From Nitrososphaeria archaeon (GTDB lineage Archaea > Thermoproteota > Nitrososphaeria > Geothermarchaeales > JDFR-13), in NCBI GenBank assembly GCA_027078545.1, contig JALWXN010000004.1:192001-256000 (forward strand): 64,000 nucleotides of DNA, in the 5' to 3' direction. The notes under the pieces were generated by a model, which worked only from the letters and a program-made list of their open reading frames with translations, ran no database searches and was not told the origin of the DNA. The position numbers and the translations under genes were made by a program. Shown here one piece after another: positions 3,577 to 56,168 of this stretch (its first letter is position 1; every line of letters begins with the position of its first letter).

Positions 3577-3615
3577 GGGGGGTTGGTGGGTTGGTGTTGG
3601 GTGTCCCTCCTCCGG
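3577..3615 (+). other. 3' arm of the pre-16S processing stem (bulge-helix-bulge)
   Basis: GGGGGGTTGGTGGGTTG-GTGT-TGG-GTGTCCCTCCTCCGG is complementary to 2000-2038. Confidence 0.9.
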
Positions 3616-3660
3616 TTTTGTTATGTTGTTTGTTGTGCTATTGTTTTGATTGTTGTTTCT
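3616..3660 (+). terminator. U-rich tracts after the 16S processing stem, likely the terminator region
   Basis: TTTTG and TTGTTTTG runs immediately after the stem. Confidence 0.4.
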
Positions 3661-4532
3661 AGGTGTTTGTTGAGTTGTTGTGTTGTTTTTGGTGGGTTGG
3701 TTGTTTCTATTCTGTTTTTTCGGGTTTGTTTGTAGTTGTGGGGTTTTAGTGTTTTTTTGAGTTTTTGTAGGGTTTTTTGTTTGTTGGTTTCGATTCTTAT
3801 TATGTATCCTTGTGGTTCGTCGTAGATCATTAGGGTTATGTGTGTGTCTGGCTGGGGTTTGTAGTGTGCCTCTATTTGTGGCCATCCCCAGTTCTGTGTT
3901 GATTCTAGGATTGGTGGTAGGTTGTTTTTGAGTGATTCTTCGAGTATTTTTCGGGCTATGTCTAGGTATGTCCTCATCTTCTCCCTCTTTGTTTGTTGGC
4001 GTGGGCGGGTGTGTCTTGTTATTCGTTCTTGTGTTACTTGTTTGAGTGTGTCTATTCCTTGTCTGACTAGGTTTTTTATGTGGGTTGTGTCGAGGGTTTC
4101 TAGTCTGTATCTGAGGATGGTGAATGCTACTCCGTCTGGGTGGATCTGTTCCTCTATGTCTAGTCCTTGTTGCCGTAGCTTCTCCGCGTTTTTTCTGCGT
4201 ATGTGGTGGTATTTGAAGGCTTCTGGGTATTTCTGCATTAGTTGTTGTAGGAATTCTCCTTTCCATGCTCCTTCCATTGGTTTTACTTCTTCCCATTCCT
4301 GGTCTAGGTCGAAGAGGATTGTTTCGAAGATCTTCTCTTTTGGTGTCTCGAGGGCTAGGATCATGTTGTCCATGTCTATCCAGATGGCTTCTATGGAGTA
4401 GTCCTCGATCAGGCTTACGGTTACTGATCGGTGGTCTATGGCTGTGGCTATCTCTGGGGGTATGGTCTCGTCCTCTAGTACTAGCTCGGTTATGACCCTC
4501 ATCAGGTCGTATGCCTTTGTTAGGCTCCTCAT
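3621..4532 (-). CDS. Hypothetical protein, paralog of 5293..6222
   Basis: Shares L..L...YPEAF....R..A.K core with the 309-aa ORF; ATG at 4532 preceded by SD-like GAGGGGGG (ORF is open to 4556). Confidence 0.75.
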   Translation of the reverse strand: MRSLTKAYDLMRVITELVLEDETIPPEIATAIDHRSVTVSLIEDYSIEAIWIDMDNMILALETPKEKIFETILFDLDQEWEEVKPMEGAWKGEFLQQLMQKYPEAFKYHHIRRKNAEKLRQQGLDIEEQIHPDGVAFTILRYRLETLDTTHIKNLVRQGIDTLKQVTQERITRHTRPRQQTKREKMRTYLDIARKILEESLKNNLPPILESTQNWGWPQIEAHYKPQPDTHITLMIYDEPQGYIIRIETNKQKTLQKLKKTLKPHNYKQTRKNRIETTNPPKTTQQLNKHLETTIKTIAQQTT

Positions 4533-4665
4533 AACTCCCCCCTCTTCTCCTCCCAATGTAAGATGTAATCTTGGGGTATGGCTGTTTTAACTTATTTCTT
4601 GACTAGGTTATCTGTGTCTGGAGAGTGTATTGGTTAAATTTTGATTTAGATATCTATTTTTTGGA

Positions 4666-5331
4666 ATGAGGCTTGCTTTACTGTCTCTCGCTTTGGGAGC
4701 CATATTTCTATATGTTGTCCTTAGTTATCCTCTGGTCTATCCTCTAGCTGAAAAAGATGGTAGAAGGGTATGTCTCGACTTAGAGGCGCTGGAGATAGAT
4801 ATGACGATTATCGTTGTTGGTGAGACTAGTGCCTATGTAGATGGGGTTATAGAGGTGTATATAGATAGGGGTATGGGGGTTGTACGTCTAGAGCCTGATG
4901 ATCTAGATGATTTTGACTGGATGGAGGTTGATGGGCTCGGCATAGTCGTGTTCTATGGCGATTGGCTGGCCAGCCATGTGTCAGACCCGAGGATAGCAGG
5001 CTTTATTGCTGAAATCGAGTTTGATAGGATAGGTCTTGTAGCGATCGATGGCAATACATCTAGCCTCTTTACCCTTCTGGATATGGTGGGTATCTATAAA
5101 CTTGTACAAGAGGGTGGTGTAAAGTGGAACCCTGCATATTCAAATCCTCATGTGGTGGGGTATATGCATCTTGAGGGGGTGATGCCTAATGGAAGCATAT
5201 ACTACTTCCCCTCGATCTTAATGTCGAATAGTAGGCTTGAGATAGATGCGGCTATCGCGATTGCCAATTGGATGGCTGGTGAAGACTACGAGTCAGAGCT
5301 GGACTGTGAATGGGTCCAGCTCCCGGGGTAG
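4666..5331 (+). CDS. Hypothetical secreted or membrane-anchored acidic protein
   Basis: N-terminal hydrophobic signal/anchor; 221-aa ORF; AT-rich promoter-like region upstream. Confidence 0.7.
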   Translation: MRLALLSLALGAIFLYVVLSYPLVYPLAEKDGRRVCLDLEALEIDMTIIVVGETSAYVDGVIEVYIDRGMGVVRLEPDDLDDFDWMEVDGLGIVVFYGDWLASHVSDPRIAGFIAEIEFDRIGLVAIDGNTSSLFTLLDMVGIYKLVQEGGVKWNPAYSNPHVVGYMHLEGVMPNGSIYYFPSILMSNSRLEIDAAIAIANWMAGEDYESELDCEWVQLPG

Positions 5332-6222
5332 TGTATCCCTAATCCACTGCCTCAGTCTTAGTGTTCCTATGAATACTTCTCTGTATAGTAGCTTCTCTGT
5401 ATGGAGTGTCTCTTTATACCTGCCCGTCTCTAGTAGTTCCCGGCGTTTCTCGGGTGTCGCGGGCCTCATCACTACATGGTATTTATGGCTGTCCATCTCT
5501 ATCTCTAGGGCTTTGACCAGCCTGCTCTTCTCCGTTCTGATATGGATCGCCGTGGGGGTCAGGTTGGATAGGTATACTGCCTGGGGTGTCTCGCCGATCC
5601 TGAGTAGGCTCTTCAGAGCAGTCTTCGCGGTCTCGTATAGCTCGTCTGTCGTCCTGGTCTCCCCCCTCCTATAGTAGGGATCGGCGGCGTCTCGATCCCT
5701 ACCCATCTCCCTACACCATCTCTGGAATGCCTCGGTGGCCTCCCTTGTCCTTGCGAGTATCTCGCCCGGCCCCCACCTGGCTATACGGAGCTTTAGCCTC
5801 GTATATGTATAGCTGTTCCGATCCACAATCGTCTCCAGCCTAATATTCATCTCCCTCGAGACTTTCTGAGCCGCCTCACGGGACATATCTAGATGTCTGA
5901 AGGCCTCGGGATACCTCTCCCTAAGGCTCTCTAGGGTGCTGGGGCTACTCCAGTCATCCACGTCCGAGAACTCGTCCTCCGCCCCGGGGTATAGCTGGGC
6001 TATCATCTCGGCTAGCTCATAGCCACCGCTCCTCGCCTCTAGCAGCCTGCCCTGCCGCCTAAGCTCCAGCTCCTCCAGCCTATCATCATCTAGGGTGATG
6101 AGGACCCTCCCCTCGTTTATGGATATGGAATAGTATGGGGCGAATATCGTCTCCCCGATTAGGTGCTTGGCGGCCAGATACGACATATCCAGGTTCTCCC
6201 GGATCTTCCCATGTCTAGTCAT
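5293..6222 (-). CDS. Hypothetical protein, third gene of the TGT-like/nuclease operon, paralog of 3621..4532
   Basis: ATG overlaps the upstream stop by 8 nt; YPEAF motif shared with the paralog. Confidence 0.8.
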   Translation of the reverse strand: MTRHGKIRENLDMSYLAAKHLIGETIFAPYYSISINEGRVLITLDDDRLEELELRRQGRLLEARSGGYELAEMIAQLYPGAEDEFSDVDDWSSPSTLESLRERYPEAFRHLDMSREAAQKVSREMNIRLETIVDRNSYTYTRLKLRIARWGPGEILARTREATEAFQRWCREMGRDRDAADPYYRRGETRTTDELYETAKTALKSLLRIGETPQAVYLSNLTPTAIHIRTEKSRLVKALEIEMDSHKYHVVMRPATPEKRRELLETGRYKETLHTEKLLYREVFIGTLRLRQWIRDTLPRELDPFTVQL

Positions 6223-7441
6223 CTCGATCCCTCCAAAGGATTATGTATCCCTTATTACTCCTATGGTCGTAGCCAATTATTACGACAATTCTGGATAGTT
6301 TTTCCACCCGCCGATTCAGTAGGTCCTTTCCAACTACTCGTGTCAGCAGATCATAGTATTCACTGACTTGTTTAACGGCATTCTTTAAGGATCTCCTCCC
6401 TTCCCTTTCTTCAAACCTATACTTTATCTCTGCTACATACATCTCATTCTCGATAAATCCTATTATATCGGGTCTGCGATTAGCGAGGATCTCCCTTAAT
6501 ACATCTTTATAGGGATCGTGTTTAGTGGGCTCAACATACACTTCACGTATTCCGATGCTGTACAGGAAATTGATGGCTAAACTCTTCCCCAGGACGTCTC
6601 TTTTAGTCATGAACCCATCATTCCTTCCTTCTAGACGGTCTTTATGACTCTCCCTCATTATGGTGTCGGCTAGACTTCTAAGATTTTCATCCCTTATCCT
6701 GTATGTATACCTCTCTACTTCCAAGCCCGCTATTCTGGTTTTCTCTTTTTCGAGTATCTCCAACGAATCCGAAATAGGTTTAAAAAGCTTCTTCTTAACA
6801 TTCTTCTCGACGTCAAGAGACGTCTTCTTAAGCTTCTTTCCATGTCTGTAGTATAGATCGATGCTATATAGGGAGCTCTCTAACTTCTCGACTCTGTAAA
6901 CTGCTGGTCTAGATCCTCGCCTAGGTTCTACTATCCATAAATTAGCTTTTCCAAGTTTCATCTGAAACTTGAGTGTTACTACTTGACCTGCACGTGTTTT
7001 GCTGGGATACTCAGCTAGTAGTGCCACTCCACATCCTCTCTCCTTTTCATAGCTCCATCTCTCAGTGGATAGATATACGTCTCCCATCTTGACTACTATC
7101 TGGTTTATGTTGATGCTTAGAACTATTGGTAAGGTTTTCCTTATCGCTTCGTTAAAGTCTTTTATAAAATTGTAGACGTTGAAGGGTTTGATATTTACCC
7201 AATATTCCCCAGGCTTAAGGCCGCTAAACATTATTTCCTTCTCTTTCTCGCCCCCAAGGTGTCTCCAGTAGTAGATATACTGTTCTCCATCGTGGATCTC
7301 TAATTTGAAGACATCTGTACCCAGCATGTCGCGGGCATATTCAAATGTCAGACCGTGAATAACCAGTGTAGGGTATTTACCTCTCCTAATGACCGCGTTT
7401 GCAAGTATCTCAATGGACTCAGGCCTTATAGTTTCTCCCAC
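6215..7441 (-). CDS. Protein with C-terminal PD-(D/E)xK nuclease domain
   Basis: RRPDIIG...VAEIK...AVKQVSEY gives PD, ExK and QxxxY motifs; lower GC than neighbours. Confidence 0.75.
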   Translation of the reverse strand: MGETIRPESIEILANAVIRRGKYPTLVIHGLTFEYARDMLGTDVFKLEIHDGEQYIYYWRHLGGEKEKEIMFSGLKPGEYWVNIKPFNVYNFIKDFNEAIRKTLPIVLSININQIVVKMGDVYLSTERWSYEKERGCGVALLAEYPSKTRAGQVVTLKFQMKLGKANLWIVEPRRGSRPAVYRVEKLESSLYSIDLYYRHGKKLKKTSLDVEKNVKKKLFKPISDSLEILEKEKTRIAGLEVERYTYRIRDENLRSLADTIMRESHKDRLEGRNDGFMTKRDVLGKSLAINFLYSIGIREVYVEPTKHDPYKDVLREILANRRPDIIGFIENEMYVAEIKYRFEEREGRRSLKNAVKQVSEYYDLLTRVVGKDLLNRRVEKLSRIVVIIGYDHRSNKGYIILWRDRDD

Positions 7442-7444
7442 GGT

Positions 7445-9037
7445 TTACACACCGTGTTCCTTAGATTTTCCAAATAGTTGGAATGGATTTACACCCTCTA
7501 GGATCTCCACTTCTCCGCTATGGGTGATGTATACTCCTCCGGGTCTTAGTAGTCTGGCTGGTTCTCTGTAGGATCCCCACCTCCCAGGCGTGGCTATCCT
7601 CCTCTCCCTGTCTATGTAGGGCTCTTCGATATAGTCTGTTACTAGCCATCCATCCTCACCTATCCCCCTGCCTAGATCCTCGATGGCCGCCTCCCTGGGT
7701 TTTCCACTGGGGCCTAGAAGCCTAATAGTCACGTCGAAGCCTCCTCCCCAGGTCTCCTTCCTTATGGTCATGGATCCCCATCTAGCTGTTAGGACTAGTC
7801 TGGTGACTAGTTCTCTAACCTGGGCTTCACCCTGGTCAGGACTCTCCTCTACTAGGTCTATACCCCTGTATAGGAGGCTGTCGAGTAGGCGGCCTATGTT
7901 GGCCCTGCCTGGCGGCATGTCCCATACCAGGATTATCCTGGTGTCCCGATGTGTATCTATCCATGCTCTAAACTCTTCCAGCACTTGTATGGATATCCGG
8001 CTGGTGTCGAATACCCGGCCCGTCAGGACTAGGTATCTAGGCCTATGCTCACCAGCCATCTTGAGGCCCAGTCTCCATAGGCTGTGCCTCCCACCTATCA
8101 TGAGGTCGTTTAGTATCAAGAGGTCGTCATACGTCTCTAGGATGAGGTCGTATCTCTCCACCCTGTAGTCCCTACTCTCCTCCCCAGCGTAGTGCCTAAT
8201 CAGTTCACGGCTTATCATGAGGTTGTGGAGGGATATGTACCGCCTCTCCCTCCTGAGCCTAGGCCCCGTGGCCAGGCACACATCGCAGTTACAGTGGTAG
8301 AACCCCCTCCTAATGTCTATGGCCTCGCCCAGCCCTCCATACACCGTCATCCTAGTGGCGTCGATAAACCATGAGTATCCAGCCAGCCTTATCCTCTCCG
8401 GATCCAGAGCCATCAGGTCGGGGATGTGCCTAGGCCCGGCCCCACCAAGTACCAACACCTCCTTGAATGGGTATTCGAGGATGAGCTCTAGGAGGTGCTT
8501 CAGATATTCATGGGTGTATCTGATGCCTGCTAGCCCAGCCCTCCTGAGGTAGGGCTCTATATACTGGTTTGTGGATAGGTAGGGAGACGCATGTATAGCC
8601 ACGGTCTCGAAGCCCAGCTCAGCCAGCCTCTCACATGCATATCTCTTATGCTCGGGGTAAGCCCCCTTTACAAGGGGTATTATGTTGAACCTCCCCCTAA
8701 GCCTCTCCACCACCTCTAGAGACTTCAATGTGTTTCGCCAGCTGGCCTCCTCATCGTCTAGATATGTGGGGGTGTCCCAGGCTATTATATAGTCGAAGCC
8801 ATGCTCCGAGGCGAATCCTAGGAAGTCTTGTAGCGTCTCCTCCCTCTCCAGATACTCGTCAGGCATGATGCTTGAGAGTATCAGCTTTATACCGGGGTTG
8901 GCCTCCCTAATAAGACGTATATCCTCCGGGCTTATCACCACCTCGTAGTATGGTAGGACTGCATATCCAAAGTGGTGGGCCGCCTCGGCGAAGATCCTCA
9001 ACGCGTCTCTACCGACTATGGGGATGAAGTGGTCCAT
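7445..9037 (-). CDS. TGT-fold (tRNA-guanine transglycosylase-like) domain fused to a degenerate calcineurin-like metallophosphoesterase domain
   Basis: WDTPT, PLVKG, VLVLG and CNCDVC...SLHNL Zn site; C-terminal LILNDLMIG, LVLTGRVFD and TPGRWG. Confidence 0.75.
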   Translation of the reverse strand: MDHFIPIVGRDALRIFAEAAHHFGYAVLPYYEVVISPEDIRLIREANPGIKLILSSIMPDEYLEREETLQDFLGFASEHGFDYIIAWDTPTYLDDEEASWRNTLKSLEVVERLRGRFNIIPLVKGAYPEHKRYACERLAELGFETVAIHASPYLSTNQYIEPYLRRAGLAGIRYTHEYLKHLLELILEYPFKEVLVLGGAGPRHIPDLMALDPERIRLAGYSWFIDATRMTVYGGLGEAIDIRRGFYHCNCDVCLATGPRLRRERRYISLHNLMISRELIRHYAGEESRDYRVERYDLILETYDDLLILNDLMIGGRHSLWRLGLKMAGEHRPRYLVLTGRVFDTSRISIQVLEEFRAWIDTHRDTRIILVWDMPPGRANIGRLLDSLLYRGIDLVEESPDQGEAQVRELVTRLVLTARWGSMTIRKETWGGGFDVTIRLLGPSGKPREAAIEDLGRGIGEDGWLVTDYIEEPYIDRERRIATPGRWGSYREPARLLRPGGVYITHSGEVEILEGVNPFQLFGKSKEHGV

Positions 9038-9189: not shown

Positions 9190-9441
9190 GTGCTGGTAAC
9201 GGTGTCTATAAAGGTTAGGAGGGAGGTCGTGGATCTGGCTGATAAGATGGTCCGCCTCGGCCTGGCTAGGAGTAGGTCCCACGCCTTCAACAGGATGATT
9301 GAGAAGGGTCTGGATAAGATTCGGGAGGAGGTGGGCTTCTGGGAGGATACGCTCATTAGGCTTGAGGATCTCTCCAGATCTGGTTATAGGATCAGGCATG
9401 GAGGCCTCTCGAGGCTTTTGGTGGAGGGTAGGAGCAGGTGA
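9190..9441 (+). CDS. Putative VapB-type antitoxin (ribbon-helix-helix-like)
   Basis: VTVSIKV strand plus SRSHAFNRMI helix; GTGA overlap with the downstream PIN gene. Confidence 0.65.
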   Translation: MLVTVSIKVRREVVDLADKMVRLGLARSRSHAFNRMIEKGLDKIREEVGFWEDTLIRLEDLSRSGYRIRHGGLSRLLVEGRSR

Positions 9442-9839
9442 TATGTCTAGACACAGATATAATTATCTCCTACCTCGACGAGCTGGATCCTAACCATCAA
9501 ACAGCTGTGGAGCTCCTATCAGGGATACGTGGCAGGAGAGTGGTGAGCTGGTTGACCATAGTCGAGCTATCCAGCGTCTATTCACGGGCGGGTATGGAGT
9601 CTCCAGCAGCGCTGGCCCTATACTCCATCGAGAAGGTAGGAGCCGAGCTGGTCGACCTAGACATGGAGACGGTCATTAGGGAGGCCCTCAAACTATCCAG
9701 CCGGCTACGCCTTAAGACACTCGACCTGCTACACATATCTGCCTCCCTACAGGCCGGGTGTAGGTTCTTCATGACGCTGGACAAGGAGATTAGGAAGGCG
9801 TCTGATGAGATTGGGAAGATGGGGATTAGGATAATATGA
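9438..9839 (+). CDS. vapC: PIN-domain toxin (VapC family)
   Basis: LDTDII, TIVEL, TLDLLH and MTLDK acidic PIN motifs; 133 aa. Confidence 0.9.
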   Translation: MICLDTDIIISYLDELDPNHQTAVELLSGIRGRRVVSWLTIVELSSVYSRAGMESPAALALYSIEKVGAELVDLDMETVIREALKLSSRLRLKTLDLLHISASLQAGCRFFMTLDKEIRKASDEIGKMGIRII

Positions 9840-9951: not shown

Positions 9952-10028
9952 GGGCCCGTAGCTCAGCCTGGCGGAGCACCGGGCTCATAACCCGGGGGTC
10001 GTGGGTTCAAATCCCACCGGGCCCACCA
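9952..10028 (+). tRNA. tRNA-Ile2 (CAT, agmatidine type), CCA encoded
   Basis: Cloverleaf with CAT anticodon and GGGCCCG acceptor stem typical of archaeal Ile; a separate elongator Met lies at 56049. Confidence 0.85.
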
Positions 10029-34286: not shown

Positions 34287-34380
34287 GGGGCCGTGGTGTA
34301 GCTTGGCTAGAACCGAGTTTGGTGGCCAGCATGCGGGCCTCGGGAGCCCGTGGTCGCCGGTTCAAATCCGGCCGGCCCCA
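34287..34380 (+). tRNA. tRNA-Pro (CGG) with 19-nt D-arm intron (34311-34329, position 22/23)
   Basis: Removing the intron gives a sequence identical to tRNA-Pro(TGG) at 38434 except at the wobble base. Confidence 0.93.
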
Positions 34381-34395
34381 CCTGAAGATGCCTGG

Positions 34396-35691: not shown

Positions 35692-35824
35692 GGGGCCGTG
35701 GCCCAGCCAGGAAGGGCGGCCGACAATATCGTTGGCTGAGGCTCCAGATCCCGGTATTAGGACCCTCTGGGGATGACTGGTGGATACCGGTCGGTCGTGG
35801 GTTCAAATCCCACCGGCCCCACCA
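35692..35824 (+). tRNA. tRNA-Trp (CCA) with two introns (35723-35740 at 30/31; 35748-35785 at 37/38)
   Basis: Splicing restores GCCGG-CT-CCA-GA-CCGGT; the first intron forms a full BHB (CGGC/GCTG central helix). Confidence 0.9.
35748..35785 (+). ncRNA. Putative intron-encoded minimal box C'/D' guide (predicted Cm39 of pre-tRNA-Trp)
   Basis: Guide CCGGTATT plus AGGA-CCC-TCT-GGG-GATGAC kink-turn; N+5 lands on C39. Confidence 0.6.
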
Positions 35825-55840: not shown

Positions 55841-55929
55841 TGGTGGGGCCGGTGGGATTTGAACCCACGACACCCCGGTTTCTGTTGTTTTCTTCAGCCG
55901 GGTGCTCTCCCAGGCTGAGCTACGGCCCC
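55841..55929 (-). tRNA. tRNA-Phe (GAA) with 12-nt intron (55880-55891, 37/38)
   Basis: CCCGG-CT-GAA-G[AAAACAACAGAA]A-CCGGG. Confidence 0.93.
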
Positions 55930-56048: not shown

Positions 56049-56168
56049 GCCGCCGTAGCTCAAAGGTGGAGCGCCCGGCTCATAACTAGGATGTTATGAG
56101 CTATGACCCTATGGGGGATGATGTGGGAGACCGGGAGGTCGCGGGTTCGAATCCCGCCGGCGGCACCA
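56049..56168 (+). tRNA. Elongator tRNA-Met (CAT) with 45-nt intron (56085-56129, 37/38)
   Basis: GCCGCCG acceptor stem; BHB central helix CTCA/TGGG. Confidence 0.93.
56085..56129 (+). ncRNA. Putative intron-encoded box C'/D' guide (predicted Cm34 of tRNA-Met)
   Basis: GTTATGAGC is antisense to the anticodon loop and is followed by ATGA-CCCT-AT-GGGG-GATGATG. Confidence 0.65.

Follow-up and report, generated by a model that had tools for sequence, protein, structure and literature searches.

Why should an archaeon keep a protein built like a tRNA-guanine transglycosylase (TGT) in one operon with a nuclease? TGT-fold proteins are tRNA or DNA base-exchange enzymes (TGT, ArcTGT and DpdA) and, as recognized lately, a remodelled immune component (Cap10). 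The question arises from a 64,000-nucleotide stretch of a Nitrososphaeria archaeon (assembly GCA_027078545.1, contig JALWXN010000004.1, positions 192,001 to 256,000; hereafter the window), belonging to a genome of 1.24 Mb that is 92% complete, in which three consecutive genes, g1, g2 and g3, lie on the minus strand. An earlier note, made from the letters of the window without database searches, had proposed them as a candidate new system. We tentatively read the trio, with confidence that stops somewhat short of an even chance, as a lineage-specific conflict module of defence or addiction type in Geothermarchaeales-type archaea, with g2 as its only working centre.

7445-9037, minus strand: g1, open reading frame (ORF) of 530 aa, TGT-fold domain fused to a degenerate metallophosphoesterase domain
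6215-7441, minus strand: g2, ORF of 408 aa with a GTG start, beta-rich N-terminal domains and a C-terminal PD-(D/E)xK nuclease
5293-6222, minus strand: g3, ORF of 309 aa, fast-evolving, family-less protein

All three are judged to be far more than chance ORFs, because homologues at 30-55% identity retain the gene order and the ratio of non-synonymous to synonymous substitution rates (dN/dS) is 0.14 for g1 (against its orthologue in locus L043) and 0.28 for g3; the GTG start of g2 is backed by an 'MG' N terminus conserved among its homologues. The 3-nt gap between g1 and g2 (7442-7444) and the 8-nt overlap between g2 and g3 (6215-6222), reproduced here exactly as they had been given, are read as translational coupling. 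Within this one operon the GC content of g2 is 0.40, against 0.54-0.57 for g1 and g3, which suggests cassette replacement or another mutational or selective regime.

The largest of the three proteins divides into two domains.

8177-9037, minus strand: g1 residues 1-287, TGT-type TIM barrel
7448-8176, minus strand: g1 residues 288-530, calcineurin-like phosphoesterase fold, metal-binding motifs lost

In the AlphaFold2 (AF2) model of g1 (predicted local distance difference test, pLDDT, 87.8), the barrel matched ArcTGT (1iq8, VIA Z 23.5), TGT (3unt, 20.0), DpdA (7ui4, 20.0), QTRT2 (6fv5, 19.3) and Cap10 (9ntn, 16.3), all above the generic TIM barrels, which reached Z 14.9 at most. Foldseek supported the TGT fold with an E value of 3.5e-8, hhalign paired the g1 profile with ArcTGT at 95.9%, and the only PDB sequence match of g1 was again ArcTGT 1iq8 (HMMER, E 1.4e-4; 18% identity in structural comparison). 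The modelled N-terminal domain is a TGT-type (beta/alpha)8 barrel, as had been proposed from the sequence, and ArcTGT, its closest structure, is also its likely evolutionary source. The best library match of g1 was the PADLOC 'TGT' model (E 4e-12, g1 residues 50-165), which is presumably a model of Cap10. The gathering threshold of Pfam PF01702 was not reached by g1, the best of 13 members being one at E 0.22, and g1 lacks the C-terminal PUA-type domains, the TDSGG motif and the nucleophile Asp.

Much of the recognition surface is conserved. The zinc (Zn) motif C249-x-C251-xx-C254...H271 is invariant in the g1 alignment and aligns with that of ArcTGT, and the invariant D88 (WDxPT) aligns by both hhalign and MAFFT to the base-reading Asp of ArcTGT (LDxPT), equivalent to Z. 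mobilis D156 and DpdA D130. The hhalign alignment with ArcTGT puts K124 at the O6-reading Gln/Lys and GG198-199 in the LFGAG loop. Conservation is strong across the ligand face of the barrel, with S55, S56, D60, D88, T91, Y92, K124, H149 and Y153 invariant on the catalytic face, and a guanine-type base pocket seems, from these alignments, to have been retained. The nucleophile Asp of the FD-SAS motif (Z. mobilis D280, DpdA D256, P. horikoshii D249) is replaced by R217 in three independent alignments (HMMER against 1iq8, hhalign and MAFFT), and the column reads R/K/C within the g1 clade and S/Y/A/V/H/T in distant relatives. All three active-site Asp residues are invariant and required in TGT and DpdA, and mutation of the nucleophile to Ala abolishes exchange (PMC10164549). 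Since g1 has replaced a residue essential in those enzymes, canonical transglycosylation by g1 is very unlikely, in line with the earlier note, to which the TGT domain appeared catalytically dead.

Catalysis might have changed rather than ceased. In one alternative, g1 is a non-canonical enzyme, for example a hydrolytic glycosylase that uses D60 to remove a guanine-type or modified base, and g2 cuts the resulting abasic site, giving a form of base-excision restriction. The invariant polar residues of the barrel's catalytic face would suit such an enzyme, as would the hhalign pairing of D60 with the general acid/base Asp (TDSGG; DpdA D95). However, that pairing comes with a 7-residue deletion spanning SGGYQ, the SGG(Y/F)Q loop being deleted, and in the MAFFT alignment S55 takes the acid/base position instead of D60. 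The variability of the nucleophile column, at a site where Ala kills DpdA activity, also speaks against this alternative, and we consider it quite improbable.

A second alternative is a Dpd-like modification-restriction system, in which DNA carrying a 7-deazaguanine inserted by g1 would be spared and unmodified DNA restricted by g2. DpdA, known as the preQ0 insertase of Dpd restriction-modification and from phages, resembles g1 in its TGT barrel (Z 20), Zn module, base-reading Asp and adjacent nuclease gene, but DpdA has the nucleophile Asp (D256) that is replaced in g1 and lacks the extra dead phosphoesterase domain. None of DpdB, DpdC or the helicase and nuclease partners DpdD-K was found in the trio or its neighbours by PADLOC, Pfam or NCBIfam, and a DpdB-like ATPase is among what is missing. 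The chemistry would also lack its substrate. PF01702 TGT is absent from 14/14 genomes of the family, including a single-contig genome of 1.6 Mb; in the window's genome, the search for QueC gave nothing better than partial PP-loop matches to unrelated ORFs of 333-506 aa, and that for PTPS/QueD gave no match. With TGT, QueC and QueD all missing there is therefore no substrate for a Dpd-like system, and the idea that host preQ0 supply spares the cluster a pathway of its own was rejected on the same grounds. The statement that the trio is not a modification system and has neither Dpd partners nor preQ0 genes is accordingly well supported by the lost nucleophile and the absent deazaguanine biosynthesis, and the Dpd-like alternative appears exceedingly improbable.

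These absences reach beyond the module. Because no canonical TGT occurs in the 14 genomes, g1 appears to be the only TGT-fold protein of these archaea. The tRNA of the family is predicted, since canonical TGT is missing in all 14 genomes and QueC and QueD are missing in the window's genome, probably to lack archaeosine. To our knowledge, this modification is otherwise nearly universal across archaea.

The second domain of g1, which the earlier note had not described, is homologous to calcineurin-like phosphoesterases, with the metal motifs lost only in the g1 clade. At the motif positions that clade has NDLMI (for SDxH), TG(R/K/N/P) (for GD; TGR in the window), WDMPP and TDYI (for GHxH), whereas the divergent relatives (L054, L055 and P0031-P0051) are recognized by Pfam Metallophos_2 (7e-10 for the L054 domain and 7e-9 for that of L055) and keep SDxH, GD, G(C/N)xD, HGH and GHxH. 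The fold is homologous to YfcE/MJ0936-type phosphoesterases (Metallophos_2), whose motifs DxH, GD, G(N/C)xD, HGH and GHxH the distant TGT-fused relatives retain but the g1 clade does not conserve. Foldseek against BFVD matched the C-terminal half of g1 to phage calcineurin-like and SbcD proteins (E 1e-7 to 1e-5) and the other half to phage TGT/DpdA-like proteins; an Atlas feature match for the phosphoesterase half (0.82) is a lead only. Because distant relatives with intact phosphoesterase motifs also lack the TGT nucleophile, an ancient loss that likewise goes beyond the earlier note, we suggest that the nucleophile was lost early, in a protein whose phosphoesterase was still active, and that decay of the phosphoesterase was confined to the clade bearing g2 and g3. 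g1 is thus predicted to be a double pseudoenzyme, non-catalytic in both domains.

Several features of these distant relatives deserve record. The fusion is followed by tightly spaced genes at L067 6001-10481 (650+287 aa) and L069 385-3955 (408+211 aa), and by one tightly spaced 472-aa gene at L054 7575-10822. By hhalign, genes downstream of the fusions in L054, L055, L067 and L069 showed no significant similarity to g2 or g3, so homology of these three-gene layouts to g1-g2-g3 is not supportable. In L054 the TGT-like barrel follows about 85 N-terminal residues rich in Cys (7575-7830), among which are several CxxC pairs, and extensions of like length occur in several other distant relatives. 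Beside another distant relative (L066 7154-12220), an NrdD gene (anaerobic ribonucleotide reductase) is interrupted by an intein and LAGLIDADG domains.

If g1 is dead in both domains, catalysis in the module would fall to g2.

6218-6619, minus strand: g2 nuclease domain, about residues 275-408, PD-(D/E)xK fold
6467-6469, minus strand: catalytic residue D325, invariant
6428-6430, minus strand: catalytic residue E338, invariant
6422-6424, minus strand: catalytic residue K340, invariant

The AF2 model of g2 (pLDDT 87.6) has beta-rich N-terminal domains (about residues 1-250) and a C-terminal alpha/beta domain (275-408). Residues 275-408 matched uniformly PD-(D/E)xK proteins in VIA, at middling Z scores of 5-7.5 (3fov, LHK-Exo 3syy, HsdR 3h1t, Hjc 1ob8, NucS 2vld, Cas4 4ic1 and HamA), and YraN/PDDEXK_9 clusters in the Atlas (template modelling score, TM, 0.62-0.66 by target); members of the g2 family gave weak Pfam matches to AHJR-like and Hjc. 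The fold emerged from the wide VIA search and the Atlas, full-length g2 having nothing below E 1e-3 against PDB in Foldseek and a profile search against PDB sequences returning 0 matches. D325, E338 and K340 are invariant in 11 g2 sequences at 18-92% identity, and a QxxxY motif follows the ExK strand in 5 of the 11, the window included (Q358...Y362), with ExxxQ, ExxxH or QxxxF at this position in the remaining members. Of the PD-(D/E)xK...QxxxY nuclease first proposed, the fold and an invariant D...ExK are supported, and QxxxY occurs in only part of the family. Model and alignment together predict that g2 carries a restriction-endonuclease-like fold with D...ExK, the module's only intact catalytic centre. 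Nucleases of the Hjc, YraN, Cas4 and HamA types share this fold and the invariant D...ExK with the C-terminal domain of g2; unlike them, g2 has a family-less beta-rich N terminus of about 250 residues, QxxxY in part of the family and no helicase or ATPase partner. The N terminus matched the AbrB/cradle-loop barrels 2glw and 2d9r (VIA Z about 5.3-5.4), a weak lead with no Pfam support. The gene at L005 1662-2975 (437 aa), which lies upstream of a complete g1-g2 pair, encodes the N-terminal beta domains of g2 twice in tandem and has no nuclease domain.

The third protein is much harder to place. No match to g3 was found in Pfam, NCBIfam or PADLOC and no usable one in PHROG or the Atlas; a single weak PHROGs match to a head-morphogenesis protein (E 0.004) was dismissed. 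Conservation in its alignment is limited to W91 and a YP(E/x)AF motif, and mean pairwise identity is 24%, near saturation. Profile-detectable g3 homologues always stand directly after g2, and g3 is best regarded as a real, very fast-evolving protein. A gene-3 paralogue had been said to lie nearby, and one was found among the following neighbours of the trio.

3621-4556, minus strand: g3b, solo second g3 copy (g3 profile E=3.6e-83; BLASTP against g3 9e-06)
4666-5331, opposite strand to the modules: ORF of 221 aa, 46% identical to a 194-aa gene of locus L006
2063-3561: archaeal 16S rRNA gene
9438-9839, divergent from g1: PIN/VapC pair (PIN E=1.1e-17), VapC and a small partner ORF
9952-10028: tRNA with anticodon CAT, assigned to Met by ARAGORN, proposed as tRNA-Ile2 in the earlier note

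The paralogue is the ORF at 3621-4556; the ORF at 4666-5331 was rejected for that role. g3b is orthologous to the in-module g3b of L006 and has a dN/dS of 0.10, and its synteny with L006 is anchored because the ORF at 4666-5331 is 46% identical to the 194-aa gene there. We interpret g3b as what is left of a second module in tandem, its g1b and g2b being missing in the window. The ORF at 4666-5331 and its L006 counterpart both lie between two tandem modules on the opposite strand and might belong to the module array. Just past the 16S gene, at 3600-4400 of the window and overlapping g3b, the GC skew rises to +0.43 and the AT skew falls to -0.71.

Relatives beyond the window are few: word-indexed comparison with 5.8 billion proteins turned up only 14 clusters for g1 and 4 for g2. 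The trio itself recurs in Geothermarchaeales-type Nitrososphaeria. In a search of 401 class genomes, full-length g1 was confined to the window's family (8/13 genomes, besides the window's own) and found in no sister family; weak matches outside the family were ordinary ArcTGT genes. A family genome may hold up to three divergent g1 copies, in tandem or convergent arrays. Iterated profile search across the fetched loci recovered the order g1-g2-g3 in the window and in L003, L006, L009, L049, L050 and L052, the same order with a broken g2 in L048, and a permuted g2-g3-g1 order in a second module of L050. There are at least 8 complete modules, the permuted one included, with g1 identities of 30-55%, so the trio does co-occur in other genomes as the earlier note had required of a real system. 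g2 and g3 are adjacent in every family genome where both were found, and pairwise distances of g1 and g2 correlate across the modules (Mantel rho 0.47, p 0.018, n=8), which we take as a sign that g1 and g2 co-diversify.

The modules are also lost piece by piece. The window and L006 are syntenic, and their common ancestor is reconstructed as having had two tandem modules: the window retains module a and the solo g3b, and L006 retains module b and g1a-g3a, with g2a deleted. Elsewhere g2 is interrupted by stop codons (G011 and G023) or reduced to a fragment (G052), whereas G049 and G015 have a broken g3 and G019 a broken g1, making g2 the component most often inactivated. This turnover, in which the nuclease is lost most and an orphan g3 is kept, fits by analogy the behaviour of conflict systems with a toxic effector. 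In L003, g1 and g2 are separated by an insertion of three genes on the opposite strand (5899-8154), namely a DUF3368 (PIN-like)/UPF0175 toxin-antitoxin pair and a 364-aa gene, and a 66-aa fragment of the g2 N terminus lies beside the full g2. The presence of this toxin-antitoxin pair inside the L003 module, and of VapBC adjoining the module of the window, would likewise fit conflict dynamics.

The same pattern could be produced by a purely selfish toxin-antitoxin or addiction module, with g2 as toxin, g3 as antitoxin, g1 as an accessory regulator and no antiviral role. Preferential loss of g2 while orphan g3 stays under purifying selection (dN/dS 0.10), the constant adjacency and overlap of g2 and g3, and the dispersal of modules among housekeeping genes are what such an element would show. 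Yet a highly conserved 530-aa g1 that co-diversifies with g2 would be unusual baggage for it, L006a retains g1 and g3 without g2, and mobile-element context was not seen. We regard an addiction module without any antiviral role as rather unlikely.

The genomic setting raises a different possibility, a family-specific housekeeping complex for nucleic-acid processing or repair in which a structure-specific, Hjc/YraN-like g2 is guided by a non-catalytic g1 scaffold, perhaps offsetting a lost pathway. The trio lies between the 16S rRNA gene and the CAT tRNA, divergent from VapBC, as the earlier note had placed it, with an NTPase_I-T gene beyond the tRNA. That note had called the region an accessory block; its genes are indeed present, but the block is no free-floating insert, because its position beside the NTPase_I-T gene and tRNA is conserved within the genus (in the same-genus comparison, the G007 contig stops directly after VapB). 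This genus-fixed position, the purifying selection on g1 (dN/dS 0.14), the housekeeping flanks, the family-wide absence of ArcTGT and the presence of the module in most family genomes whose assembly lets it show would all suit a housekeeping complex. Paralogous modules that are deeply divergent and number as many as three in a genome, frequent single-component pseudogenes and deletions, the extreme divergence of g3 (mean identity 24%) and the lack of full-length relatives in sister families would not, and a housekeeping role is in our judgement unlikely.

Some of these observations count directly against a conflict module and should be weighed together with others of the same sign. Besides the conserved position of the block, on long contigs the modules have citrate synthase, FEN1, peroxiredoxin and similar housekeeping genes as neighbours, with no integrase, transposase or known defence gene beside them. 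A scan of viral contigs found no relatives of the module proteins, and PADLOC recognized no system in the module, a result that also agrees with the expectation that it matches no described system. Carriage in the family may be near-universal, because absences coincide with fragmented assemblies, and would then suit a housekeeping role as well. Finally, g1 may retain some residual non-canonical catalysis, with D60 and S55 both candidate general acids. Against these points, we still favour the conflict module with g2 as effector because modules are multi-copy, tandem or convergent, and decayed, mostly in g2, and because solo g3 is under purifying selection.

From the observed folds, motif states, synteny, restricted distribution, turnover and selection, a putative three-protein complex can be drawn as the most likely working model. 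g1 would bind a guanine-like base, presented by a free nucleotide or turned outward from a nucleic acid, because it retains residues with which TGT, DpdA and Cap10 recognize the Watson-Crick edge of guanine-type bases (D88, K124 and GG198-199). As a subunit it would sense for the g2 nuclease or regulate it, g2 would be the effector, possibly a toxic one, and g3 might be an inhibitor, immunity factor or adaptor. A complex prediction for g1 and g2 gave a score of 0.17, below the mark, and was used neither for nor against binding.

Two known proteins offer partial precedents for this arrangement. QTRT2, the non-catalytic eukaryotic TGT subunit, has lost catalysis while keeping the fold and Zn site, as g1 has, and acts as a binding partner; QTRT2 pairs with a catalytic TGT paralogue, whereas the neighbour of g1 is a PD-(D/E)xK nuclease and the family genomes have no catalytic TGT. 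Cap10 of type IV CBASS (cyclic-oligonucleotide-based antiphage signalling system) shares the TGT fold, sits in an immune operon and, after remodelling, no longer serves tRNA. Its base-reading set is Asp/Asp/Lys (D/S, D and K on the same base edge; 10.1101/2025.04.06.647259), to be compared with D88 and K124 in g1. Unlike g1, Cap10 keeps the catalytic Asp (D248), has no Zn site, and needs Cap9 (QueC-like) and a CD-NTase, neither of which was found beside g1, the genome as a whole containing no QueC-family gene. A literature search for an archaeal system joining a TGT-like protein and a nuclease found nothing specific.

The sharper form of the proposal, close to the sensor-effector module of the earlier note, is that the dead, ArcTGT-derived barrel recognizes foreign nucleic acid by a guanine-type or 7-deazaguanine base, or else reads a guanine-nucleotide signal, and switches on the nuclease; we think this doubtful as a specific mechanism, while keeping the broader conflict module as our tentative reading.

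Elsewhere in the window, four tRNA calls have an unusual form (34287-34382, 35692-35821, 55844-55929 and 56049-56165): one ARAGORN call has a two-base anticodon, and three Rfam tRNA matches, 86-130 nt long, probably represent archaeal tRNAs with introns.

The family is tiny and its hosts are uncultured archaea of the hot subsurface, which bounds the reach of any conclusion. In these archaea the TGT fold has lost its covalent-catalysis residue family-wide, has been fused to a phosphoesterase that is dead in the g1 clade, and has become locked to a nuclease gene. If g1 is indeed a reader, a TGT pseudoenzyme would for the first time have become an immune sensor, in archaea that had themselves given up archaeosine, and a nuclease acting in trans would have taken over from a once-active phosphoesterase domain in cis. 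A sensor-effector role would thus introduce a new sensing principle for archaeal immunity, the base-pocket pseudoenzyme, and would illustrate the stepwise replacement of a catalytic module.

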